Assembly: GCA_009363175.1 (NCBI GenBank)
Contig: CP045205.1
Location: 856,549 to 920,548 of the forward strand
Direction: 5' to 3'
DNA: 64,000 nucleotides
DNA from: Citrobacter telavivensis
GTDB lineage: Bacteria; Pseudomonadota; Gammaproteobacteria; Enterobacterales; Enterobacteriaceae
Shown piece after piece: positions 1-38,425 of this stretch. The notes under the pieces were generated by a model. It was given only the letters and a program-made list of their open reading frames with translations, was not told the origin of the DNA and made no database searches. A program made the position numbers and the translations under genes. The first letter of the stretch is position 1. Every line of letters starts with the position of its first letter.

Positions 1-497
1 AGCAGGCGATCAGCCGTGGTCTGGCCTACGCCCCGTATGCCGACCTGGTCTGGTGTGAAACCTCCACGCCGGATCTTGAACTGGCGAAGCGTTTTGCCGA
101 TGCCATTCACGCGAAGTATCCAGGTAAACTGCTGGCCTACAACTGCTCGCCGTCGTTTAACTGGCAGAAGAATCTGGACGACAAGACCATCGCCAGCTTC
201 CAGCAACAGTTGTCCGATATGGGCTACAAGTACCAGTTCATCACCCTGGCGGGTATCCACAGCATGTGGTTCAACATGTTCGACCTCGCGCGTTCCTACG
301 CACAGGGCGAAGGCATGAAGCATTACGTTGAAAAGGTACAGCAGCCAGAATTCGCCGCAGGCTCGGACGGTTACACCTTCGTCTCTCACCAACAGGAAGT
401 GGGCACCGGCTACTTCGATAAAGTCACCACCATCATTCAGGGCGGCGCATCATCGGTGACCGCGTTGACCGGTTCGACCGAAGAATCGCAGTTCTGA
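1..497 (+). CDS. aceA: Isocitrate lyase AceA, C-terminal part (5' end lies outside the window; reading frame 3).
   Basis: Frame-3 translation from base 3 reads ...[54 protein letters not shown]... and continues into the ORF-track C-terminus ...TGSTEESQF, as in enterobacterial AceA. Confidence 0.9.
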
Positions 498-499
498 TT

Positions 500-2324
<1,825 letters not shown>

Positions 2325-2327
2325 TTA

Positions 2328-2430
2328 CTATAGGCCGGATAAGGCGCTTACGCCGCCATCCGGCAATATGCGCCGATCTACCTGATGGCGCTACGCTTAT
2401 CAGCCCTACCGAAAATGCCCCTTAGGGATA
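2328..2430. repeat. REP cluster downstream of aceK
   Basis: ggccggataaggcgcttacgccgccatccggca followed by a second palindromic unit. Confidence 0.7.
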
Positions 2431-2436
2431 TTTTGC

Positions 2437-3261
2437 TTACCGGATCCCGCCGTACGCCAGCGTGACTTCTTTCGCCGCCTTGATCACCATCGCGCCAAAC
2501 TCGGTAACGCGGTCGTCGGTGATGCGCGAAATCGGGCCGGAGATAGAGATCGCCGCGAACGGCTCGCGATGCTCGTCAAAAATGCACGACGCCACGCAGC
2601 GCAGACCGAGCGCATGCTCCTCATCATCAAAGGAATAACCGCGCTTGCGGGTCTGGGCGAGGTCGTCCTTCAGATGAACCGGGGAGACCAGCGTCGCGTG
2701 GGTGTACGCATGCAGCCCTTTGCGGTGCAGCAACTGGGTTACCTGTTCTTCACTCAGCTGCGCTAAAAACGCTTTGCCTGCGCCAGAGGCGTGCATCGGC
2801 AGCTTACCGCCAATCGGTGCAGACATGCGCATCAGTTGGGTGCACTGCACCTGGTCAATGATAATCGCCTGATGGTCACTCTGATCCAACACCGCCAGAT
2901 TTACCGTTTCACCGGAATCCTCCATCAGTTTGCGCAGAATCGGATGGACGATTGCCAGCAGATTGCGGCTCTGTAAAAAGCTGCTGCCGACGATGAACGC
3001 GTGCGCGCCTATCGCCCAGTGCCCAAGATCGCCCACCTGACGCACAAAGCCCTGCTGCTGCATGGTGGTGAGTAAACGGTGAGTGGTGGAGTTTGGCAAA
3101 CCAGCCTGCTGTGCCAGTTCGGTCAACGCCACGCTGCCGTTGGATTCCGCGATCCATTCCAGTAGTTTCAGGCCACGGGTCAGCGACTGAACCTGTCCGG
3201 CAGCGGGGGCGGTTGTCGCAGCGGGTTTTCTGCCGCGTTTGGCGGGAACGGGTGCAACCAT
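2437..3261 (-). CDS. iclR: IclR, repressor of the acetate/glyoxylate operon
   Basis: 274 aa, MVAPVPAKRGRKPA...SLTRGLKLLEWIAESNGSVALTELAQQAGLPNSTTHRLLTTMQQQGFVRQ. Divergent from metH as in E. coli. Confidence 0.93.
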   Translation of the reverse strand: MVAPVPAKRGRKPAATTAPAAGQVQSLTRGLKLLEWIAESNGSVALTELAQQAGLPNSTTHRLLTTMQQQGFVRQVGDLGHWAIGAHAFIVGSSFLQSRNLLAIVHPILRKLMEDSGETVNLAVLDQSDHQAIIIDQVQCTQLMRMSAPIGGKLPMHASGAGKAFLAQLSEEQVTQLLHRKGLHAYTHATLVSPVHLKDDLAQTRKRGYSFDDEEHALGLRCVASCIFDEHREPFAAISISGPISRITDDRVTEFGAMVIKAAKEVTLAYGGIR

Positions 3262-3454
3262 AGCGGACTCCTTTTCTGTATCGTGGAAATCATTTTCGTT
3301 TTATTCAATTATAATGCAAGAAGACTTGTACTGATCGGATGAGTGAAGCTGAACATGTCTCATGTTGCCCGTTGTTGGCTTTTCCGTCAGCCCTGTTTAT
3401 GCCACTATGTTTTGTTGACTTTTTCGGTCTGGTTGAGCGTTGTCGGGAGCAAGT

Positions 3455-6400
3455 GTGAGCAGCAAAGTTGAACAACTGCGTGCGCAGTTAAATGAACGTA
3501 TTCTGGTGCTGGACGGCGGCATGGGCACGATGATCCAGAGCTACCGTCTGAGTGAAGAGGATTTCCGTGGTGAACGCTTTGCCGACTGGCCGTGCGACCT
3601 GAAAGGTAATAATGACCTGCTGGTGCTTAGCAAGCCAGAGGTGATTGCTGCCATACACAACGCGTATTTTGACGCGGGCGCGGACATCATTGAAACCAAC
3701 ACCTTCAACTCCACTCCTATCGCAATGGCGGATTACCAGATGGAATCCCTGTCGGCGGAGATCAACTTTGCCGCCGCGAAACTGGCGCGCGCCTGTGCTG
3801 ATGAGTGGACCGCTCGCACCCCGGAAAAACCACGCTATGTTGCGGGCGTTCTCGGCCCAACCAACCGGACCGCGTCGATCTCGCCGGATGTGAATGATCC
3901 GGCATTCCGTAATATCACCTTTGACCAGTTGGTGGCCGCTTACCGCGAATCCACCAAAGCGCTGGTGGAAGGCGGCAGTGATCTGATTTTAATTGAAACC
4001 GTCTTTGATACGCTGAACGCGAAAGCGGCGATTTTCGCCGTTAAAGAGGAACTGGAGGCGCTGGGCGTCGACCTGCCGATCATGATTTCCGGCACCATCA
4101 CCGATGCTTCAGGCCGTACGCTTTCCGGTCAGACAACGGAGGCGTTTTATAACTCCCTGCGCCATGCCGAGCCTCTTACCTTCGGTCTCAACTGTGCGCT
4201 GGGACCGGACGAACTGCGCCAGTATGTGCAAGAGCTTTCACGCATTGCCGAATGCTACGTGACGGCACACCCGAACGCCGGGTTGCCCAACGCTTTCGGT
4301 GAATACGATCTGGACGCCGATACGATGGCGGGTCAGATCCGCGAGTGGGCCGAAGCGGGTTTCCTGAACATCGTTGGCGGCTGCTGCGGTACCACTCCGG
4401 AACACATTGCGGCGATGAACCGCGCCGTCGAGGGATTGGCGCCACGTCAGTTGCCGGAGATCCCCGTCGCCTGCCGCCTGTCCGGTCTTGAGCCGCTGAA
4501 TATTGGCGACGACAGCCTGTTTGTGAACGTCGGTGAACGTACCAACGTCACCGGTTCCGCCAAATTTAAGCGCCTGATCAAAGAAGAAAAATACAATGAA
4601 GCGCTGGATGTTGCCCGTCAGCAGGTCGAAAGCGGTGCGCAGATTATCGATATCAACATGGATGAGGGGATGCTCGACGCCGAAGCGGCGATGGTGCGCT
4701 TCCTCAACCTGATTGCCGGTGAGCCGGATATTGCTCGTGTGCCGATCATGATTGACTCCTCAAAATGGGAAGTCATCGAGAAAGGGCTGAAGTGCATTCA
4801 GGGGAAAGGCATCGTTAACTCTATCTCCATGAAAGAGGGGGTTGAGATCTTCACCCACCACGCGAAGCTGCTGCGTCGCTACGGTGCGGCGGTAGTGGTG
4901 ATGGCCTTTGATGAACAGGGCCAGGCGGATACCCGCGCGCGTAAAATCGAGATTTGCCGCCGTGCGTACAAGATTCTCACCGAAGAGGTGGGCTTCCCGC
5001 CGGAAGACATTATTTTCGACCCGAATATTTTCGCGGTAGCGACCGGGATTGAAGAGCACAACAACTACGCGCAGGACTTTATCGGCGCGTGTGAAGACAT
5101 CAAACGCGAGCTACCGCATGCGCTGATCTCTGGCGGCGTGTCCAACGTTTCGTTCTCGTTCCGCGGTAACGACCCGGTACGTGAAGCCATTCACGCGGTG
5201 TTCCTTTACTACGCCATTCGCAACGGTATGGACATGGGGATTGTGAACGCCGGACAGTTGGCGATTTACGACGATTTGCCGGCTGACCTGCGCGACGCGG
5301 TCGAGGACGTGATCCTCAACCGTCGTGATGACGGCACTGAGCGACTGCTGGAACTGGCGGAGAAATACCGTGGCAGCAAGAGCGATGAGACGGCCAACGC
5401 CCAACTGGCGGAATGGCGCACCTGGGAAGTGAAAAAACGCCTCGAATACTCGCTGGTTAAAGGCATCACCGAATTTATCGAGCAGGACACCGAAGAGGCG
5501 CGTCAGCAGGCCGCCCGTCCGATTGAAGTGATTGAAGGGCCGCTGATGGACGGTATGAACGTCGTCGGCGACCTGTTTGGCGAGGGCAAGATGTTCCTGC
5601 CGCAGGTGGTGAAATCCGCTCGCGTAATGAAACAGGCGGTGGCGTATCTCGAACCGTTTATCGAAGCCAGCAAAGAGAAAGGCTCCAGCAACGGTAAAAT
5701 GGTGATCGCCACCGTGAAGGGCGACGTTCACGATATCGGCAAGAATATTGTTGGCGTGGTCCTGCAATGTAACAACTACGAGATCGTCGATCTTGGCGTG
5801 ATGGTGCCGGCAGAGAAGATCCTCAGAACCGCGAAAGAGGTGAATGCCGATCTGATCGGCCTTTCCGGGCTGATTACCCCGTCGCTGGACGAAATGGTCA
5901 ACGTGGCGAAAGAGATGGAGCGTCAGGGCTTCACCATTCCGCTGCTGATTGGCGGGGCGACGACCTCGAAAGCGCATACGGCGGTGAAAATCGAGCAGAA
6001 CTACAGTGGCCCCACGGTTTACGTGCAGAACGCCTCGCGCACCGTCGGCGTGGTCGCCGCGCTACTTTCCGACACCCAGCGCGATGACTTTGTCGCCCGT
6101 ACCCGCAAAGAGTATGAAACCGTGCGTATCCAGCATGGGCGTAAGAAACCGCGTACGCCGCCGGTGACACTGGCGGCCGCGCGTGAAAACGATCTGGCGT
6201 TTGACTGGGAAAACTATACTCCGCCGGTGGCGCATCGTCTGGGCGTGCAGGAGGTCGAAGCCAGCATCGAAACGCTGCGTAACTACATCGACTGGACCCC
6301 GTTCTTTATGACCTGGTCGCTGGCCGGGAAATATCCGCGCATTCTGGAAGATGAAGTGGTCGGCGTCGAGGCGAAGCGCCTGTTTAACGATGCTAACGAC

Positions 6401-29402: not shown

Positions 29403-30983
29403 TCATGTTCTGACTTTGAGATTTTCCCAGCTCAGGCCGAACCGTGCGAGGTACTTACGCAGACGGTCGGCATCGTTGGGATTGGCTTTCTTCTGTCGGG
29501 AGACGGCGAAGAGTTCACGTCCGGCTTCGGACAACGATGCGCTGCGTCGGCATACCTCGAGCACCGTTTCCAGTTGGCGGCGGTCAAAGAGGTCGAGTTC
29601 CATCTCTCGTTCCGGTTGCAACGCCGTCTCCCCCCAACTCTCCTGCAAAAGCGCGATCTCTTCTTCGACGAGGGCGGGCGTAATACGCCCTTGCTCAGCC
29701 AGCGTTGCCATTCGCGCGACGGAGGAGCTCAGCTCGCGGAAATTGCCGCGCCACTGCGCCTGGGGCGAACAGGCAAACGCCAGATAGCGTTCGCGCGCCT
29801 CTTTATCAAAGCGGATCTGATTCTGTCGACTGCGGGAGAAACGTTGCAACTCATACTCAACGTTAGGGGCAATGTCTTCACGCCGCTGGGCAAGGCCGGG
29901 CAAGGCAAAGCGCCACATGTTAATACGTGCGTAGAGATCTTCGCGAAAACGCCCTTCGGCGACCCACTGTGGCATATCGCGATGGGTGCCGGCAATCAAC
30001 TGGAAGTCGCTGTGCACCTCTTTATCTGAGCCAAACGGGAAGAAGGTTTTCTCCTCGATCGCTTTCAGCAGCATGGCCTGTTCGTCCAGCCCCAGTTCAG
30101 CGATTTCATCCAGAAACAGCACCCCGCCGTCGGCTTCGCGTAACAGTCCGGTTCGCGATGACAGGGCACCTGTAAACGCGCCTTTCACATGTCCAAACAG
30201 CGTCGACATAGCGTTATCGCCGCGCAGGGTAGCGCAGTTAACCGCTACCAGTTTTCCACCCACCAGATGTCGCGACTGGCGAAGCTGGAAAATCCGTTTG
30301 GCGAGGAAGGATTTCCCCGCGCCGGTCGGGCCGGTGAGCAGGATAGGATCGCCTGAGCGCAAGGCCACGCGCTCAATGCGGTCAATCAGTTTGTTGAAGG
30401 TAGCATTGCGCGTCTCGATACCGGCTTTGAGGAAGGAGACCGACTGCTGCTGCTCACGCTGAAAGCGACTGGTGAGCGTGGCATAGCGGCTTAAATCGAG
30501 ATCGATAACCGAACAGGTGCCAGCGGCAACGTCCTCCGGTGGAGCGCCCTTCGGCGCGGGGCCGGTTTGCAGCAGGCTGGCGGGCAGATAGCGGGCTTCC
30601 GTCAACAGGAACCAGCAAATTTGTGCCACGTGAGTGCCGGTGGTGATGTGCACCAGATACTCTTCGTTCTCGGTATCGAAGGTGTAGTGCGTGGCAAAGT
30701 CGAGGAACGCGGCATAGACCTCTTCGAAATCCCACGGATCGGCAATGGTGATCGCATGCGGGCGGACCTGGGTATGTGGGGAGAGCAGGTTGATATCCTC
30801 CGCCAGTTGCTGACACATCCCGGCATCGCGTGGCTGGTGGATAAGCTCCAGTCGATCGACCGGGAAATCCGGCTGTTGACACAGTCCGACCGTTGGTCGC
30901 CATTTCTTGAGCCGGTTTGCCCGCTTGCCGCGTTTATCCAGCACCGTGCCCAGCACGCCAATCACCACCCGCCGCTTTTTCAT
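29403..30983 (-). CDS. rtcR: RtcR: sigma-54-dependent activator with an N-terminal CARF-like sensor domain, an AAA+ (GAFTGA) domain and a C-terminal HTH
   Basis: 526 aa. MKKRRVVIGVLGTVLDKRG...ITIADPWDFEEVYAAFLDFA (RtcR N-domain), GPTGAGKSFLAKRI, HVKGAFTGA, C-terminal HTH. Divergent from an rtcB operon. Confidence 0.9.
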   Translation of the reverse strand: MKKRRVVIGVLGTVLDKRGKRANRLKKWRPTVGLCQQPDFPVDRLELIHQPRDAGMCQQLAEDINLLSPHTQVRPHAITIADPWDFEEVYAAFLDFATHYTFDTENEEYLVHITTGTHVAQICWFLLTEARYLPASLLQTGPAPKGAPPEDVAAGTCSVIDLDLSRYATLTSRFQREQQQSVSFLKAGIETRNATFNKLIDRIERVALRSGDPILLTGPTGAGKSFLAKRIFQLRQSRHLVGGKLVAVNCATLRGDNAMSTLFGHVKGAFTGALSSRTGLLREADGGVLFLDEIAELGLDEQAMLLKAIEEKTFFPFGSDKEVHSDFQLIAGTHRDMPQWVAEGRFREDLYARINMWRFALPGLAQRREDIAPNVEYELQRFSRSRQNQIRFDKEARERYLAFACSPQAQWRGNFRELSSSVARMATLAEQGRITPALVEEEIALLQESWGETALQPEREMELDLFDRRQLETVLEVCRRSASLSEAGRELFAVSRQKKANPNDADRLRKYLARFGLSWENLKVRT

Positions 30984-31112
30984 GGTTTATCCCAAAAGAT
31001 AAATATCGATATTGAAAGATAAAAAATACGGAAGGCATCTGCAATCACCATTATTGGCGATAAAAATTAATCCATTATTAATCAGATAATTAAAAATTAA
31101 TTTTGTCTTTTT

Positions 31113-31128
31113 TTCGTTCTGGCACGCT
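31113..31128 (+). promoter_or_regulatory. Sigma-54 (-24/-12) promoter driving the SPFH-rtcB-NTase operon
   Basis: TGGCACgcttcTGGCA, one mismatch from TGGCAC-N5-TTGCA. It lies in the rtcR-divergent intergenic region, as in known rtc operons. Confidence 0.7.
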
Positions 31129-31138
31129 TCTGGCAATA

Positions 31139-31436
31139 ACACTCTCGTCAACACGTTGAAAGCGCAGGGGGTTAAACCCCGCCGGCACGTCAGGAACGGC
31201 AGCGGCTGTTTTCCGGAGGTGTTCCGTCAACCGATGACACCTGAACAATGGGTTCGATTCCCGATTCATTCTCCCAATGAAACTGGTTGTTAATCATAGA
31301 AATAAAAACGGGTACTGCGCAGTCAGCAGGCCCCAAAACAGGTTGCCGGTCACGATGCCGCGCCGCAGGCAAAAGGGAATTCCCCTGTAGCTTCGCCTCC
31401 GCACCCGCACCTGACTTTGATAAGGAAAAGAGAAAA
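31139..31436 (+). ncRNA. Candidate structured leader or Y-RNA-like / tRNA-like RNA between the sigma-54 promoter and the first CDS
   Basis: Non-coding stretch of ~300 nt with three elements: GGGGTT-aaa-AACCCC hairpin (31160-31176), 6-bp hairpin AGGTGT...ACACCT (31218-31243), and GGTTCGATTCCC (31251-31262), which is near-identical to the tRNA T-arm consensus GGTTCGAATCC. Confidence 0.3.
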
Positions 31437-32564
31437 ATGACGAAGAAAATCACTATCCGCAAAGGACAATTAGGTCTGTTAGCGAAAAACGGCGACTACT
31501 ATCAGGTTCTGGAGGCGGGTGAACACCGTCTGCCGTGGTTCAATACGCCAGAGGTGCTGGTGGTTAATCTGGACGGTAGCGAAGTGCCGGAAGCGCTGGC
31601 GAATTATTTACGCCGTTTTCAGCCGGACTGGGTAACGCGTTACGGTCTGGCCGTCGATCTTAACGACAGCGAAGCGGGGGCGTTATACATGAATGAGGTG
31701 TTGCAGGAGATCCTGCCGCCGTCCACGCGCCGTTTGTACTGGCGAGCCGACGAGGCGTTGAAACTGGTACGCATGGATACGCGTCAGGTTCAGGTGCCCA
31801 CAGAGGTCATGAATGCGGTCCTGCAACCGCGACGTAACGGTGCGGTTAAAGGTCGTGAAGCGATGCTCACCGTGCAGGTTCCGGCCTGGCATGCGGGTGT
31901 GTTGAAAATTGACGGTGAGACGCAGGCGCTGTTGCCGCCGGGTCTGACGGCGTACTGGAAAGTGAATCATCTGGTTGACGCGGAAGTGGTGGATACCCGT
32001 TTGCAGGTACTGGAAGTGGGCGGTCAGGAAATTTTGACCAAAGATAAGGTCAACCTGCGTCTGAATCTGGCGGCGAACTGGCGTTACAGCGACGTGCTGC
32101 AGGCTTTTGCGCAGCTCACTAAACCGCTCGATCATCTGTACCGCGAACTGCAGTTTGCACTGCGTGAAGCCGTCGGGACGCGCACGCTGGATGAGTTGCT
32201 GGAAGATAAGCAGGTGATTGATGACGTAGTCAGCGCGCAGGTGAAAAAACGTATGGCGCCCTATGGCATCGACGTGGCCTCGCTGGGCGTGAAGGACATC
32301 GTGTTGCCGGGGGATATGAAAACGATTCTGTCCCGTCTGGTTGAAGCGGAAAAATCGGCGCAGGCCAACGTGATCCGCCGTCGTGAAGAAACGGCCGCGA
32401 CGCGCTCGCTGTTGAATACGGCGAAAGTGATGGAAAACAACCCGGTAGCGCTGCGCTTAAAAGAGCTGGAAACCCTCGAAAGAGTGGCGGAGCGTATCGA
32501 TAAAATCTCGGTATTCGGTGGCCTGGACCAGGTTCTGCACGGCTTAGTGAACATTAAAGGATAA
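31437..32564 (+). CDS. SPFH/band-7 (stomatin/HflKC-like) domain protein with no predicted TM helix
   Basis: The C-terminal half is ...EILTKDKVNLRLNLAANWRYSD...GIDVASLGVKDIVLPGDMKTILSRLVEAEKSAQANVIRRREETAA..., an SPFH core plus coiled-coil tail. AAGGAAAAG ribosome-binding site. First gene after the sigma-54 promoter. Confidence 0.8.
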   Translation: MTKKITIRKGQLGLLAKNGDYYQVLEAGEHRLPWFNTPEVLVVNLDGSEVPEALANYLRRFQPDWVTRYGLAVDLNDSEAGALYMNEVLQEILPPSTRRLYWRADEALKLVRMDTRQVQVPTEVMNAVLQPRRNGAVKGREAMLTVQVPAWHAGVLKIDGETQALLPPGLTAYWKVNHLVDAEVVDTRLQVLEVGGQEILTKDKVNLRLNLAANWRYSDVLQAFAQLTKPLDHLYRELQFALREAVGTRTLDELLEDKQVIDDVVSAQVKKRMAPYGIDVASLGVKDIVLPGDMKTILSRLVEAEKSAQANVIRRREETAATRSLLNTAKVMENNPVALRLKELETLERVAERIDKISVFGGLDQVLHGLVNIKG

Positions 32565-32569
32565 GAAAC

Positions 32570-33796
32570 ATGGCACATAACGACTATGCGCTGTTGGCGT
32601 CGCAGAACGCGGCGCCGGTGAAAATGTGGACGCACGGCGTTCCGGTGGAGCCCGAAGCGCGCCAGCAACTGCTGAACACGGCGAAGATGCCGTTTATTTT
32701 TAAACACCTGGCGGTGATGCCGGATGTGCATCTGGGGAAAGGGTCGACCATCGGCAGCGTGATCCCAACCAAAGGGGCGATTATTCCGGCGGCAGTAGGG
32801 GTGGATATCGGCTGTGGGATGATCGCAGTGCGTACTTCGCTGCTGGCCGGCGATCTGCCGGATAACCTCAGCGGGTTGCGGAGCGCGATTGAGCAGGCCG
32901 TTCCACACGGGCGTACGAATACGCGCTCCCGTCGCGACAAAGGCGCGTGGGATACGCCGCCAGAGGAGGTGAGTACTCACTGGGGGATGCTGGCACCGCG
33001 CTTTAAGCGCCTGACTGACAAGTATCCCTCGTTGCTGAAGACCAACAACTATCAGCATCTGGGAACATTGGGAACCGGTAACCACTTCATTGAGGTTTGT
33101 CTGGATGAGCAGCAGCGCGTCTGGGTGATGTTGCACAGCGGCTCGCGCGGCGTGGGGAATGCCATCGGCAACGTTTTCATCACGCTGGCGCAGCAGGATA
33201 TGCAGCAGCATATCGCGAATCTCCCGGACCGAAACCTGGCGTACTTCCAGGAAGAGAGCCAGCACTACAACGACTACATTGAAGCGGTGGAATGGGCGCA
33301 GGATTTTGCCCGGCAAAACCGGGAGGTGATGATGTCCCGTGTCCTGGCCGCGCTGTCGCGCATCGTGAGTAAACCGTTTATCACCCAGCAGGAAGCGGTG
33401 AATTGCCACCATAACTATGTGCAAAAAGAGCGTCACTTTGGTGAAGAGGTGCTGGTGACGCGTAAAGGCGCTGTTTCAGCGCAGAAAGGCCAGATGGGGA
33501 TTATTCCGGGGTCGATGGGGGCGAAAAGCTTCATCGTGCGTGGGCTGGGGAATGAAGAGAGCTTCTGCTCCTGCAGCCATGGCGCAGGAAGAACCATGAG
33601 CCGAACGGCGGCCAAAAAACGCTTTACCGTGGCGGATCAGATCCGCGCGACGGCCCACGTTGAATGCCGTAAAGACAGCGAGGTGATCGATGAAATTCCA
33701 ATGGCTTACAAAGACATTGATGCCGTGATGGCGGCGCAGTCTTCACTGGTGGAGATCGTGCATACGCTGCGGCAGGTGGTGTGTGTAAAAGGATAA
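32570..33796 (+). CDS. rtcB: RNA 3'-phosphate ligase RtcB
   Basis: 408 aa with RtcB signature blocks (MPDVHLGKGSTIGSVIPT, GVDIGCGM, GTGNHFIE, HSGSRGVGN, CHHNYV, NEESFCSCSHGAGR). Very close to the E. coli RtcB sequence as I remember it. Confidence 0.93.
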   Translation: MAHNDYALLASQNAAPVKMWTHGVPVEPEARQQLLNTAKMPFIFKHLAVMPDVHLGKGSTIGSVIPTKGAIIPAAVGVDIGCGMIAVRTSLLAGDLPDNLSGLRSAIEQAVPHGRTNTRSRRDKGAWDTPPEEVSTHWGMLAPRFKRLTDKYPSLLKTNNYQHLGTLGTGNHFIEVCLDEQQRVWVMLHSGSRGVGNAIGNVFITLAQQDMQQHIANLPDRNLAYFQEESQHYNDYIEAVEWAQDFARQNREVMMSRVLAALSRIVSKPFITQQEAVNCHHNYVQKERHFGEEVLVTRKGAVSAQKGQMGIIPGSMGAKSFIVRGLGNEESFCSCSHGAGRTMSRTAAKKRFTVADQIRATAHVECRKDSEVIDEIPMAYKDIDAVMAAQSSLVEIVHTLRQVVCVKG

Positions 33797-33802
33797 AAGA
33801 AG

Positions 33803-34588
33803 ATGGCGAAAAATGCAGTGAGTGCCGCGATGCGCGAACGGGTCGCGCGGCAACTCAAAGAAGTGGAAACGCGTTACGGCGTCAGGGTGCTGTATGCCTG
33901 CGAGTCAGGGAGTCGCGGCTGGGGATTTGCCTCGCCGGATAGTGATTACGATGTGCGGTTTTTGTATGTTCATCCGCCACAGTGGTATCTGCGGGTCGAC
34001 GCGCCGCGCGACGTGATCGAGCTGCCGATAGACGATGAACTGGACGTGTGCGGCTGGGAGTGGCGTAAAGCGCTGGGACTGCTGAAGGGGGCCAACCCGA
34101 CGCTGATCGAGTGGCTGGATTCCCCGGTGGTTTATCAGCAGGATGAGGTCACGGTCAGCGCACTTAAAACGATGATACCGCAGTGGTTTTCTCCACTTCG
34201 CGCACGTTGGCATTACTACTCGATGGCGCGAAAAAACTTTCGCGGCTATTTGCAGGGAGAAGAGGTGCGGCTGAAAAAATACTTCTACGTCCTGCGTCCG
34301 CTGCTGGCGGTGCGTTGGGTCGAAGCGGGTAAAGGCGTTCCGCCCATGCGCTTTGCCGAACTGCTGGCCGGAAGCGAACTGGAGGCGCCGTTACGTCAGG
34401 AGATAGACGAACTGCTGGCGCGCAAACAGCGTGCGGGAGAGGCGGAGTATGGTCCGCGCCGTCCGTTGCTGCATGCGTTCATCCACGCTGAACTGGCGAG
34501 AGGCGAAATCCCGCCCACGCTGCCGGACAGCCGGGAAGGCGACGTGAAGGCACTGGATAAACTGCTTTATGAGACGGTGATGGTATGA
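33803..34588 (+). CDS. Pol-beta-superfamily nucleotidyltransferase, 261 aa, in the position normally occupied by rtcA
   Basis: N-terminal NTase motif ...LYACESGSRGWGFASPDSDYDVRF (hG[GS]...DxD) followed by a helical C-terminal domain. Starts 7 nt after the rtcB stop. Confidence 0.75.
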   Translation: MAKNAVSAAMRERVARQLKEVETRYGVRVLYACESGSRGWGFASPDSDYDVRFLYVHPPQWYLRVDAPRDVIELPIDDELDVCGWEWRKALGLLKGANPTLIEWLDSPVVYQQDEVTVSALKTMIPQWFSPLRARWHYYSMARKNFRGYLQGEEVRLKKYFYVLRPLLAVRWVEAGKGVPPMRFAELLAGSELEAPLRQEIDELLARKQRAGEAEYGPRRPLLHAFIHAELARGEIPPTLPDSREGDVKALDKLLYETVMV

Positions 34589-34594
34589 CTACGT

Positions 34595-34682
34595 TGCCCG
34601 ATGGCGCTGCGCTTATCGGGCCTACGTGGGCAAAATTTGTAGGCCGGATAAAGCGCGGAGCGCCGCCATCCGGCATTGAATC
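34595..34682. repeat. REP cluster between the NTase gene and lysC
   Basis: cccgatggcgctgcgcttatcgggcctac ... gtaggccggataaagcgcggagcgccgccatccggca. Confidence 0.75.
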
Positions 34683-34686
34683 TATA

Positions 34687-36036
34687 TCACTCAAACAAAT
34701 TCTGGTGCAGTTTTTGCACCACTTGCTCGGCTTCGGTGCCAGGCACCAGGAAACAGAGGTTATGGCTGGAAGCGCCATAGCAAATCATACGGATATTGAA
34801 CGGTTCCAGCACGCCGAACACCTCTTTGCCGACGCCGCAGGCTTTCGACAGATCGTTACCAATCAGCGCAACCAGCGCGAGACCCTCTTCAACCTCCACC
34901 CGACACAAGGCAGACAGTTCCATTAGCAGCGACTGCGTCAGCAGCGTATCGCCAGTGGAGGTCGAGCCGGTGGTATCCAGCGTTAGCGCCACGCTCACTT
35001 CGGAGGTGGTGATCAGATCGACCGAGATATTATGGCGTGCCAGAATACCGAATACTTCGGCCAGGAAACCGCGCGAGTGCAGCATATTCAGGCTGTGCAG
35101 CGTTAACAGGGTTTGTTTACGACGCAGCGCCAGCGCGCGGAACAGCGGTGGATTCTGGGTTTTATTGCAGACCAGCGTACCGCCCGCTTTCGGATCTTTA
35201 CTGGAGCCGACGAAGACCGGGATATCGCTGCGCACGGCGGGCAGCAGGGTGGCCGGATGCAGCACTTTCGCACCAAAGGTGGCCATTTCCGCCGCCTCTT
35301 CAAAGGCGATTTCATCAATGCGCTGCGCCGCAGGCACCACGCGAGGATCGGTGGTGTAGATGCCCGGAACGTCCGTCCAGATATCGACACGCGCGGCATG
35401 GAGCGCTTCGGCCAACAGGGCCGCCGTGTAGTCGCTGCCGCCGCGTCCGAGTGTGGTTGTGCGCCCTTTGCCTTCGCTGCCGATGAACCCCTGAGTGATC
35501 ACCAGCCCTTCGTTCAGACGTGGGGTCAGTTGCAGCGTTGCCAGTTCTGCCAGCGCCGCGACGTCAGGTTCGGCGCGACCAAAGCGATCGTTGGTACGCA
35601 TCACTTTACGCACATCGAACCACTGCGCCTGAACGTGACGCTCACGCAGGATTTCAACAAACAGCAGAGTAGACATCAGTTCGCCGTGGCTGACCAGTTC
35701 ATCCGTCAGCGCGGTGGAAGTGGCGAGTGAGGCCGCTTCCGCCAGCGTGGTGATATTTTCCAGCAGACGTTCGATCTCTTCACGAATAACGTTTGGATAA
35801 CGCAGACGTTCCAGGATATCGAATTGAATTTTGCGGATAGCGTCGAGTTTCTCGAAGCGTTCGGTGGGTTCCAGACCTTCAGCCAGTGCAACCAGTAAAT
35901 TAGTGATGCCTGCGGAAGCGGAGAGCACCACTAAACGCACGTTTGCATCGGAAAGCACCACGTCGGCGCTGCGGTTCATGGCATCGAAATCAGCGACGCT
36001 GGTTCCGCCAAATTTGGAAACAACGATTTCTGTCAT
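34687..36036 (-). CDS. lysC: Lysine-sensitive aspartokinase III
   Basis: MTEIVVSKFGGTSVADFDAMNRSADVVLSDANVRLVVLSASAGITN..., 449 aa. Confidence 0.95.
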   Translation of the reverse strand: MTEIVVSKFGGTSVADFDAMNRSADVVLSDANVRLVVLSASAGITNLLVALAEGLEPTERFEKLDAIRKIQFDILERLRYPNVIREEIERLLENITTLAEAASLATSTALTDELVSHGELMSTLLFVEILRERHVQAQWFDVRKVMRTNDRFGRAEPDVAALAELATLQLTPRLNEGLVITQGFIGSEGKGRTTTLGRGGSDYTAALLAEALHAARVDIWTDVPGIYTTDPRVVPAAQRIDEIAFEEAAEMATFGAKVLHPATLLPAVRSDIPVFVGSSKDPKAGGTLVCNKTQNPPLFRALALRRKQTLLTLHSLNMLHSRGFLAEVFGILARHNISVDLITTSEVSVALTLDTTGSTSTGDTLLTQSLLMELSALCRVEVEEGLALVALIGNDLSKACGVGKEVFGVLEPFNIRMICYGASSHNLCFLVPGTEAEQVVQKLHQNLFE

Positions 36037-36059
36037 AACAACCTCGTGTCAGGGAGTGA

Positions 36060-36265
36060 GAAAGCGACCTGGGCACAAAGGCAGAACAGAAACCGGTGCA
36101 GGCGCAAATACCGTATTTATAAATAAAATGTGTGGCCTGGACTGTCAACGCTGGGATTATGCGGATTTTTCATGCTGCGTTTAGCCTCAGTAATGGTGCT
36201 TATAACAACGATACTTTTCGGCGGCATTTGACCGTGGCCAGGCAACGGCACTAAAACAATCACAC
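36060..36265 (-). ncRNA. lysC leader, expected lysine riboswitch (LYS element). Coordinates approximate.
   Basis: ~230-nt untranslated leader. The ribosome-binding-site-proximal part (CCCTGACACGAGGTtGTTATG on the minus strand) matches the E. coli lysC leader as I remember it. Enterobacterial lysC carries a lysine riboswitch. Confidence 0.55.
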
Positions 36266-36328
36266 TTTTCTGTGACTGGCGTTACAATCGATCCCAGTCA
36301 CAATTCTCAAATCAGAAGAGTATTGCTA

Positions 36329-37975
36329 ATGAAAAACATCAATCCAACGCAGACCTCTGCCTGGCAGGCACTACAAAAACACTTTGATGACATGAAGGAC
36401 GTTACTATCGCGGATCTGTTCGCGAAGGATAGCGATCGCTTCAGCAAATTCTCCGCAACGTTTGACGATCTGATGCTGGTGGATTACTCCAAAAACCGCA
36501 TCACCGAAGAGACGCTGGCGAAACTGCAGGATCTGGCGAAAGAGACCGATCTGGCGGGCGCCATCAAGTCCATGTTCTCCGGCGAGAAAATCAACCGTAC
36601 TGAAGATCGTGCCGTGCTGCACGTGGCGCTGCGTAACCGTAGCAATACCCCGATTATCGTGGACGGCAAAGATGTGATGCCGGAAGTCAACGCGGTGCTG
36701 GAGAAGATGAAATCCTTCTCTGAAGCCATTATTTCGGGCCAGTGGAAGGGGTATACCGGTAAAGCGATCACCGACGTGGTTAACATCGGTATCGGCGGCT
36801 CCGACCTCGGCCCGTTCATGGTGACCGAAGCGCTGCGTCCGTACAAAAACCACCTGAATATGCACTTTGTTTCTAACGTCGACGGTACCCATATCGCCGA
36901 AGTGCTGAAGAAAGTGAACCCGGAAACCACCCTGTTCCTCGTGGCGTCCAAAACCTTTACGACGCAGGAAACCATGACTAACGCCCATAGCGCGCGTGAC
37001 TGGTTCCTGAAAACCGCCGGTGACGAAAAACACGTTGCGAAACACTTCGCCGCGCTGTCTACCAACGCGAAAGCGGTCGGTGAGTTCGGTATCGATACCG
37101 CCAATATGTTCGAGTTCTGGGACTGGGTGGGCGGTCGTTACTCGTTGTGGTCAGCGATTGGTCTGTCGATCATCCTGTCCGTCGGTTACGACAACTTTGT
37201 GCAACTGCTGTCCGGCGCGCATGCGATGGATAAGCACTTCTCGACCACGCCTCTGGAGAACAACCTGCCGGTGCTGCTGGCGTTGATTGGTATCTGGTAC
37301 AACAATTTCTTCGGTGCAGAAACCGAAGCGATCCTGCCGTATGACCAGTATATGCACCGTTTCGCGGCCTATTTCCAGCAGGGCAACATGGAGTCTAACG
37401 GGAAATACGTTGACCGTAACGGCAACCCGGTGGATTACCAGACGGGCCCGATCATCTGGGGTGAACCGGGAACCAACGGTCAGCACGCCTTCTATCAGCT
37501 GATTCACCAGGGAACCAAAATGGTGCCTTGTGATTTCATCGCCCCGGCGATTACCCATAACCCGCTGTCCGATCACCATCCGAAGCTGCTGTCTAACTTC
37601 TTCGCCCAGACGGAAGCGCTGGCGTTCGGGAAATCGCGTGAAGTGGTTGAGCAGGAATACCGCGATCAGGGTAAAGATCCGGCCACGCTGGAACACGTGG
37701 TGCCGTTCAAAGTGTTCGAAGGCAACCGCCCGACCAACTCCATCCTGCTGCGTGAAATCACTCCGTTCAGCCTGGGTGCGCTGATTGCGCTCTATGAGCA
37801 CAAAATCTTTACTCAGGGCATCATCCTGAACATCTTCACCTTCGACCAGTGGGGCGTTGAGCTGGGTAAACAGCTGGCGAACCGCATTCTGCCGGAGCTG
37901 AAAGATGATAAAGCGATTGAAAGCCACGACAGCTCGACTAACGGATTGATTAACCGTTATAAAAACTGGCGTTAA
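36329..37975 (+). CDS. pgi: Glucose-6-phosphate isomerase
   Basis: [34 protein letters not shown]..., 549 aa. The ORF-track start at 36272 is an upstream in-frame extension. Confidence 0.95.
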
Positions 37976-38062: not shown

Positions 38063-38077
38063 AGTTAATAATGAAAT

Positions 38078-38106
38078 GAGCCGATATTATTATCGGCTTT
38101 TTTTAT
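38078..38106 (+). terminator. Rho-independent terminator after pgi
   Basis: gagccgata-ttatta-tatcggc followed by TTTTTTT. Confidence 0.75.
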
Positions 38107-38425
38107 AAGATAATTCCGGTTGTCCGTGTTGTTTCCCGCAATTTTATATTGAGCATAATCCTAAAATAATAAATAACCGTAAAATAACCCAGTGTTATTT
38201 TAGGATAATACGGATCGTTTAGCTAAATGAATTTAATGTTAATATGCTGTTTTTAATGATTATTATTATTTTTATAAAAATGAATTGTTCAGCAAAAGTC
38301 CAATTATCCTAAAACCACCTTGCTATTTCCCCCTGCCGTAATTCGCATGCTTTAGTTGTGTATACTCGATCCCGCCCGAAATGCTTTTGGGTAAATCTCC
38401 ATTCATTCAATGAAGGGAAATTGTT

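Follow-up and report, generated by a model that had tools for sequence, protein, structure and literature searches.

A T-arm-like hairpin in the leader of a slipin-rtcB-rlaP operon belongs to a conserved, modular RNA

The leader of a slipin-rtcB-rlaP operon in Citrobacter telavivensis contains a short motif that resembles the T-arm of tRNA. We analyzed it within 64,000 nucleotides of this genome (contig CP045205.1, positions 856,549 to 920,548; hereafter the window, in whose own coordinates all positions are given). The leader is about 290 nt long (~31146-31436), is free of open reading frames (ORFs), and lies between an RtcR-type sigma-54 promoter and the three genes. We find that it is a modular, conserved structured RNA, composed of a hairpin H1, a long "rod," the T-arm, two smaller hairpins, and a 3′ domain. 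The elements found at the same position in related loci range from bona fide cloverleaves via minihelices ending in ACC(A) to the bare T-arm of the window. Giving it about an even chance (0.5), we read the motif as the T-arm of a degenerate Band-7-associated tRNA-like RNA. It would mimic the tRNA elbow and dock a protein of the operon, forming a ribonucleoprotein (RNP) for repair by RtcB and RlaP.

The T-arm is conserved and covaries upstream of slipin

The initial annotation, made from the window alone, had proposed a T-arm mimic at GGTTCGATTCCC. We confirm the motif at 31251-31262 on the plus strand, where it falls in the following hairpin.

31249 to 31263, plus strand: T-arm hairpin UGGG-UUCGAUU-CCCG, the surviving core of the tRNA-like element "A" described below; 28 leaders show no variation in the loop and the two inner G-C pairs

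Taken from the window alone, the motif is not significant. The degenerate T-loop pattern GGTTCRANYCC occurred once where 0.51 matches were expected, and at least one match was present in 42 of 100 shuffles. The motif becomes significant because of the comparative evidence, that is, its recurrence upstream of slipin together with a covarying stem. Scanning one genome per species, we collected 80 slipin loci, extending from Enterobacterales to Burkholderiales, Neisseriaceae, Orbaceae, and Thiotrichaceae (L numbers below designate loci). The T-arm GGTTCGANTCC was present upstream of slipin in 76 of the 80. Enterobacterales carry a single copy of GGTTCGANTCC, 180 to 280 nt before the start codon. 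All 40 Enterobacterales loci, as well as several further loci, have a TGGCAC-N5-TNGCA promoter ~125 to 170 nt upstream of the T-loop. Most lineages outside Enterobacterales carry two copies, roughly 70 to 78 nt apart.

The five-base T-stems covary (ATGGG/CCCGA, ACGGG/CCCGT, TCAGG/CCTGA, CCAGG/CCTGG, CTGGG/CCCAG, TTGGG/CCCAA, and others). There are 56 distinct T-stems, and all five pairs are formed in 86 of 116. Among the 28 Enterobacterales leaders, the outer pairs of the T-arm also covary; compensatory changes occur in 2 of its 4 pairs, and 95.5% of cells are paired. A chance match, or a dead relic such as a decayed tRNA gene fragment or an island attachment site, would be in keeping with the chance-level count in the window. 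It would also suit the erosion of the tRNA-like fold in the clade around the window (Citrobacter, Escherichia, Klebsiella, Enterobacter, Phytobacter, and Yokenella; hereafter the window clade) and a Providencia lineage that lost the T-arm. Against this, the T-loop is invariant and its stem covaries across the 28 leaders while their flanks diverge, and the position relative to promoter and slipin is constant in the 76 loci. The covariation and conservation of the T-stem therefore rule out both chance and neutral relic, leaving them a very small residual probability.

The leader is built of covarying modules

Performing comparative folding with RNAalifold on the 28 Enterobacterales leaders and on 13 leaders of the window clade, we identified the following modules around the T-arm.

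31164 to 31182, plus strand: hairpin H1 (GC-A-GGGG / CCCC-GC), from the 28 leaders; 6 of 6 pairs compensatory, 93.5% of cells paired
31183 to 31226, plus strand: the rod, a long bulged hairpin; 13 of 14 pairs compensatory, 93.1% of cells paired
31265 to 31281, plus strand: post-T-arm hairpin UUCAUU-CUCCC-AAUGAA; covaries in the window clade (TTCACT/AGTGAA, TCACC/GGTGA, TTTCA/TGAAA)
31282 to 31290, plus strand: block ACUGGUUGU, apparently unpaired, nearly invariant in the 13 window-clade leaders; weaker, clade-level support
31310 to 31333, plus strand: middle hairpin (GGG..CUGC-GCAGUCA-GCAG..CCC), from the 13 leaders; 4 of 6 pairs compensatory, weaker support than for the other modules
31341 to 31412, plus strand: 3′ domain, formed by a long interrupted hairpin in which the blocks GGCA(A/G)AA, UUCCCC, and GCUUCGC are conserved; 18 of 21 pairs compensatory

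The 5′ part of the leader (H1, rod, and T-arm) had 93.6% of its cells paired against 41 to 57% in slid controls, and 21 of 24 compensatory pairs against 4 to 8. None of 500 shuffles reached the observed value for four of five measures. The 3′ domain behaved similarly (94.8% of cells paired versus 42-53% in slid controls; 0 of 500 shuffles reaching the observed value). Both the stems and the motif are thus conserved with compensatory changes across orthologous leaders, as expected for the proposed T-arm mimic and not for an ordinary 5′ untranslated region (5′-UTR). Minimum free energy folds of the whole leader were no better than those of shuffles (z of −0.6 and −1.2), and single-sequence thermodynamics of the whole leader is uninformative. 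Folding the modules of the window singly reproduces the comparative H1, rod, T-arm, post-T-arm, and middle hairpins, and the 3′ domain only approximately.

H1 is itself T-arm-like in some relatives, for example CGGA-UUCGAAG-UCCG in Xenorhabdus. The 3′ strand of the rod bears a widely conserved GUGUUCCG, which appears as GUAUGCCG or GUGUACCG in other lineages. From the 28 leaders we built a covariance model, R1, comprising H1, rod, and T-arm; a second model, R2, describes the 3′ domain. R2 matches Providencia, Orbaceae, and Neisseriaceae, while the 3′ domain was undetected in Burkholderiales at E < 0.1. One locus, L033 (Providencia sp. SKLX146130, 3688-3979), keeps H1, rod, and 3′ domain (53 bits with R1, 59 bits with R2) and has entirely lost the T-arm. 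H1, rod, and 3′ domain may be previously undescribed, and both the 5′ part and the 3′ domain are eligible as new RNA families.

Two other hairpins of the leader had been pointed out from the sequence. The GC hairpin near the transcription start is present, but at other coordinates than first given: its GGGG/CCCC core pairs 31167-70 with 31177-80, and it extends over 31164-31182. The hairpin AGGTGT/ACACCT does exist, one base off, at 31217-22/31237-42, but it is not part of the conserved fold. We rejected it as such because it competes with the covarying base of the rod. It is also missing from most other window-clade leaders inspected by eye: E. coli has an equivalent (GGCGT/ACGCC), and L002, L003, L005, L007, L008, and L012 do not.

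Counterparts in other lineages are tRNA-like

In Beta- and other Gammaproteobacteria, ARAGORN calls the same-position elements tRNAs, with anticodons that are inconsistent or malformed (att, agg, tta, and "anticodons" of 2 or 4 nt). The Rfam tRNA model RF00005, whose gathering score is 29, gives them 38 to 68 bits in L042, L044, L046, L052, L056, L059, L061, L067, L071, L072, and L077. The gathering score was not reached by the Enterobacterales loci tested (L010, L021, L026, and L034) or by Burkholderia L039. The downstream element, "B," has the canonical cloverleaf form, and its D-arm reads TAGCTCA..GGTAGAGCA; often its acceptor stem is short and CCA is missing. The upstream element, "A," varies from a true tRNA with an ACCA end (tRNA-Met-like in L064, L068, and L076) to a D-armless minihelix of acceptor stem and T-arm. 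The minihelix of L056, for instance, consists of GGCGATG, a small hairpin, the T-arm, CATCGCC, and ACCA.

The covariance model R1 connects the window with these elements. It matches Undibacterium L058 (E of 2.5e-10) and L056 (6.8e-8), Burkholderia L039 (3.8e-4), and others, each time aligning H1, rod, and the first of the two T-arms. The window T-arm is therefore element A, and element B is missing from Enterobacterales. Sequence comparison thus indicates that the T-arm of the window descends from, or converges on, a tRNA-like element. In the comparative fold, the 44-nt rod hairpin takes the place of the D and anticodon arms.

Many Enterobacterales retain a 4- to 7-bp acceptor-like stem around the T-arm (GCGAA/TTCGC, GCAAA/TTTGC, TGATA/TATCG, GTGAT/ATCAC, TCGGA/TCCGA). 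It is accompanied by a linker of 11 to 16 nt, often with GGUUA, and by a trailing (C)ACC. In the window clade, the former acceptor 3′ strand has taken a downstream partner (31265-70 with 31276-81), forming the post-T-arm hairpin, which covaries there. Within 31233-31281 of the window, two alternative partners are available to the 3′ flank of the T-arm, an upstream one (GAUGA 31233-37 with UCAUU 31266-70) and the downstream one just described. In Superficieibacter L013 (~3780-3840) both pairings are strong (GCGAA/TTCGC and TTCGCC/GGTGAA), which could represent an evolutionary intermediate or a conformational switch.

We also considered a mobile or phage origin and rejected it. R1 recovered no convincing leader from the 43 viral contigs that matched a loose DNA pattern. 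Slipin itself is encoded on a single viral contig, where the leader is truncated.

The RNA travels with slipin

The initial annotation had tied the element to rtcB. We find that the association is with the slipin (Band-7) gene instead. Performing tblastn across the loci, we observed the order rtcR, leader, slipin, rtcB, and rlaP in most Enterobacterales and Burkholderiales. Many slipin loci are without rtcB, and two Escherichia loci (L001 and L009) have no adjacent rtcR. The leader RNA of the window is present in Citrobacter, Klebsiella, and Enterobacter, and in about 30% of complete E. coli genomes (1632 of 5426), where it is ~77% identical over ~300 nt. It is absent from Rfam and carries no annotation in the E. 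coli RefSeq records. In those E. coli genomes it belongs to an island between yjbD and lysC, which consists of the leader, slipin, and RlaP, with no adjacent rtcR or rtcB. The island of E. coli O103:H2 12009 (L001, 6001-9215) keeps the sigma-54 promoter and has a convergent gene of the zeta-toxin family. That this promoter is retained with no rtcR beside it implies that the island is controlled from a distance, by the rtcR at the rtcBA locus.

In the fetched DNA of the most distant loci we detected neither rtcR nor rlaP, and nothing rtcB-like beyond a weak match; these loci kept the tRNA-like elements and slipin. In the two distant loci examined, L061 and L068, an AAA ATPase follows slipin in place of rtcB. 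The canonical rtcR-rtcBA operon of E. coli, with a 5′-UTR of ~38 nt, gave no R1 match even with filters off. Because the E. coli island and the distant loci keep the RNA and the rtcBA operon lacks it, the RNA is tied to slipin, and not to rtcB or rtcR. The invariant association is that of RNA and slipin.

Arrays of 8 to 25 canonical tRNA genes occur in L054, L064-L066, L068, L070, L074, L080, and L081 (at ~200-3700 in locus coordinates), whereas L061 is without one. The arrays share the strand of the tRNA-like pair and slipin and directly precede them; their hosts are uncultured Burkholderiales and other Proteobacteria.

The operon is of the RtcR/sigma-54 type

The genes and the promoter around the leader are as follows.

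29403 to 30983, minus strand: rtcR, encoding a CARF-containing sigma-54 activator, divergent from the leader; Pfam RtcR and Sigma54_activat domains, NCBIfam equivalog RNA_repair_RtcR at 822 bits
31120 to 31135, plus strand: sigma-54 promoter TGGCACGCTTCTGGCA as read from the sequence; −24 GG at 31121-22, −12 GC at 31133-34, predicted transcription start ~31146
31437 to 32564, plus strand: slipin/Band-7 gene (SPFH, stomatin-type); Pfam Band_7 at residues 147-318, with stomatins as the best solved relatives
32570 to 33796, plus strand: rtcB RNA ligase; Pfam RtcB, 439 bits
33803 to 34588, plus strand: RlaP (PF10127) nucleotidyltransferase; Pfam RlaP, 321 bits

The promoter lies seven bases downstream of the place first assigned to it (31113-31128). 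The absence of a plausible ORF from the leader stands as first described, and so does the first start codon at 31437. This ATG is the first plausible start of slipin and agrees with the RefSeq-annotated 375-aa E. coli orthologue ("slipin family protein"). With its −24/−12 elements and the divergent rtcR, the promoter has the features of an RtcR/sigma-54 operon. It resembles the promoter of canonical E. coli rtcBA and is probably under RtcR control. The region 30900-31600 contains no intrinsic terminator and no sigma-70 promoter.

Several solved relatives of the slipin were deposited as assemblies of 16 to 26 chains. Its N-terminal ~150 residues (31437-31880, residues 1-146), ahead of the SPFH domain, have no Pfam match and are a candidate RNA-binding or partner-binding module.

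Comparison with known tRNA-like RNAs

Burroughs and Aravind (NAR 2016), as described in a 2018 preprint (10.1101/312249), predicted a "Band-7-associated tRNA," or b7a-tRNA, encoded beside Band-7 and RtcB, and suggested for it the role of a cofactor resembling the Y RNA of Ro. In the relevant passage of the preprint, it still lacked validation as of 2018. Searching the literature, we found no experimental work on b7a-tRNA later than this preprint. The window element matches the b7a-tRNA kind in a reduced form. Like b7a-tRNA, it is a non-coding, tRNA-like element adjacent to the Band-7/SPFH gene of an RtcB-type repair operon (slipin, rtcB, and rlaP, with rtcR divergent). A b7a-tRNA is said to strongly resemble an authentic tRNA, which is true of the same-position elements elsewhere and not of the window. 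The window keeps only the T-arm, corresponds to the first, minihelix-type element A and not to cloverleaf B, and embeds it among H1, rod, and 3′ domain; for this comparison the original description is known second-hand. It is a new, reduced variant of the predicted RNA with additional structured modules.

The Y RNAs of the Salmonella rsr-yrlBA-rtcBA operon are a second point of comparison, and the initial annotation had suggested a YrlA-like RNA that would bind Ro. In favor of that idea, both RNAs occupy an analogous place in an RtcR/sigma-54 repair operon. Both are T-loop-containing tRNA mimics (Salmonella YrlA has a tRNA-like domain; 10.1101/312249), and both are proposed cofactors of a ring- or cage-forming protein. 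However, the leader has no Rfam match to Y RNA or YrlA at E ≤ 10, its architecture is different, and its 5′ and 3′ ends form no terminal Ro-binding stem. Ro/TROVE is absent from the eight neighboring proteins that we scanned against Pfam (RtcR, Band_7, RtcB, RlaP, AA_kinase/ACT aspartokinase, SBF, or no family). Moreover, the window element sits in a 5′ leader and not between genes, and slipin is the partner gene throughout. Membership in the YrlA family is effectively refuted.

Element A of L056, L039, and L010 is akin to the minihelix mimics of acceptor stem and T-arm known from the tRNA-like domain of transfer-messenger RNA and from MALAT1 mascRNA. It has an acceptor-like stem, a linker of 12 to 15 nt, the T-arm, and ACC(A), with no D stem, and RNase P/Z could free it from the transcript. 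The window differs in that the acceptor 5′ strand is deleted. A CCA end, alanine identity elements, and processing are not among its demonstrated features. In the Anabaena L-array (PMC8421152), tRNA or tRNA-like genes are likewise expressed with RNA repair, and distant slipin loci have tRNA arrays. The L-array encodes functional, aminoacylatable tRNAs, whereas the window encodes none.

Weighing a proposed tRNA-elbow mimic against other roles

The initial annotation had put forward a ligand or decoy in RtcR sensing, or a processing substrate of RtcB or the nucleotidyltransferase, as possible roles. We favor the following sequence of events. Damage to tRNA would activate RtcR, and the leader would then be made alongside the repair proteins. 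The T-arm, with its invariant T-loop, would act as a tRNA-elbow mimic and as a docking handle for a protein of the operon, most probably the cage-forming slipin. The resulting RNP of slipin and RNA would organize or specify the repair of tRNA-like substrates by RtcB and RlaP, in the manner of Ro and Y RNA. RlaP extends damaged RNA 3′ ends by one or two nucleotides (PMC12776372). The partner and role in this scheme are purely our inference. A structural or recognition role is preferred over decoding, or over a decoy for a specific anticodon nuclease, because the anticodon loops vary and the acceptor and D arms erode while the T-loop stays invariant.

Several results weigh against this reading. 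ARAGORN called zero tRNA genes in the 64-kb window. Rfam 15 gave no credible tRNA, Y RNA, or other family in the leader, at gathering thresholds and also at E ≤ 10 (30950-31500). The leader matches at E ≤ 10 were at chance level only (NsiR8, snoRNAs, and a minus-strand mascRNA), and RF00005 was not among them. The scans for Y RNA, YrlA, and tRNA suggested with the initial annotation accordingly returned nothing credible. The 4-bp T-arm is the only tRNA-like remnant in the window. Its UUCRANY loop closed by G-C at 31249-31263 is that of a tRNA T-arm, while the acceptor stem, D-arm, anticodon arm, and above-threshold tRNA score are all missing, and an acceptor-like stem is at best 5 bp and contested. 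In the window clade, a deletion of ~25 nt took the acceptor 5′ strand and the GGUUA linker. Even across 41 leaders, the test for an acceptor-like stem was marginal (mean best helix of 4.49 bp versus 4.15 bp with shuffled flanks; four Providencia leaders were mis-anchored). L033 shows that the T-arm can be lost. The equation with b7a-tRNA rests on a secondary description, and a cis-acting role would account just as well for the fixed position of the RNA directly upstream of slipin.

The main rival is such a cis-acting leader, which we consider possible though not probable. The structured RNA would then govern how the slipin-rtcB-rlaP mRNA is processed, how stable it is, or how it is translated, and would not be an RNP subunit acting in trans. 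The T-arm could be a processing signal for RNase P, Z, or E, as in tRNA-mRNA co-transcripts and MALAT1-mascRNA, or its T-loop could serve as a tertiary-contact module of a sensor-like fold. In every case the RNA immediately precedes slipin on its strand, behind the promoter, and no terminator-like site intervenes. From established tRNA biology, processing by RNase P/Z is expected for the relatives with full cloverleaves or ACC(A) minihelices. The two alternative pairings of the T-arm 3′ flank, both at full strength in L013, would be compatible with a switch. However, the upstream pairing is not conserved in E. coli, Klebsiella, or Enterobacter, and none of the conserved helices includes the Shine-Dalgarno sequence or the start codon. 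We found no arrangement of terminator and antiterminator in 30900-31600, and ~290 nt conserved in several independent modules exceed the needs of a processing site.

A decoy, sponge, or sentinel is an unlikely role. Here the co-induced RNA would soak up, or be cut by, tRNA-targeting nucleases, and its fragments might feed back on the CARF domain of RtcR. Fragments of tRNA do activate RtcR (PMC7790460), and a sponge for toxin RNases has been proposed for stress-induced tRNA arrays co-regulated with rtcB (PMC8421152). The arrays of 8 to 25 real tRNA genes at the same place in distant slipin loci also point this way. But the window element, having neither anticodon arm nor D-arm, cannot mimic the usual targets of anticodon nucleases. 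The anticodon loops of its relatives vary freely and are sometimes of the wrong size, which argues against a decoy for a specific anticodon nuclease. In addition, transcription of the leader begins only once RtcR has been activated.

A wider version of the elbow-mimic reading takes the whole leader, 290 to 550 nt, as one large non-coding RNA with several domains that would serve as the RNA component of a slipin cage, comparable to a vault or to a Ro/Y RNP. The T-loop would then be a protein-docking handle or an internal tertiary contact, and the rod and 3′ domain would be new elements with separate functions. At the extreme, the RNA would directly sense damaged tRNA or toxin activity and gate the operon. 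We put this forward as speculative and rather improbable.

The locus bears on the targets of bacterial RtcB and on its frequent pairing with tRNA-like RNAs and cage- or ring-forming proteins, of which it is a genetically tractable instance. The invariant T-loop provides a clear mutational target. The series from real tRNA through minihelix to bare T-arm, with its strict linkage to slipin, narrows down the part of the tRNA shape that is read and the protein that reads it.

Other features near the operon

A 113-aa ORF follows rlaP (34585-34926, plus strand). It overlaps the 3′ end of lysC in antisense and has no Pfam match, and in L001, the locus checked, its tblastn match falls within lysC. Most likely it does not represent a gene. 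The lysC gene occupies 34687-36036 on the minus strand, with its leader region at 36037-36330, in which Rfam detects no lysine riboswitch. Compared with the lysC-pgi spacer of E. coli, ~235 nt containing the annotated riboswitch are missing from the window, and a related Enterobacter locus retains the riboswitch. The enterobacterial small RNA STnc430 (RF02053) has a full-length match at 38067-38228 on the minus strand (136.6 bits).

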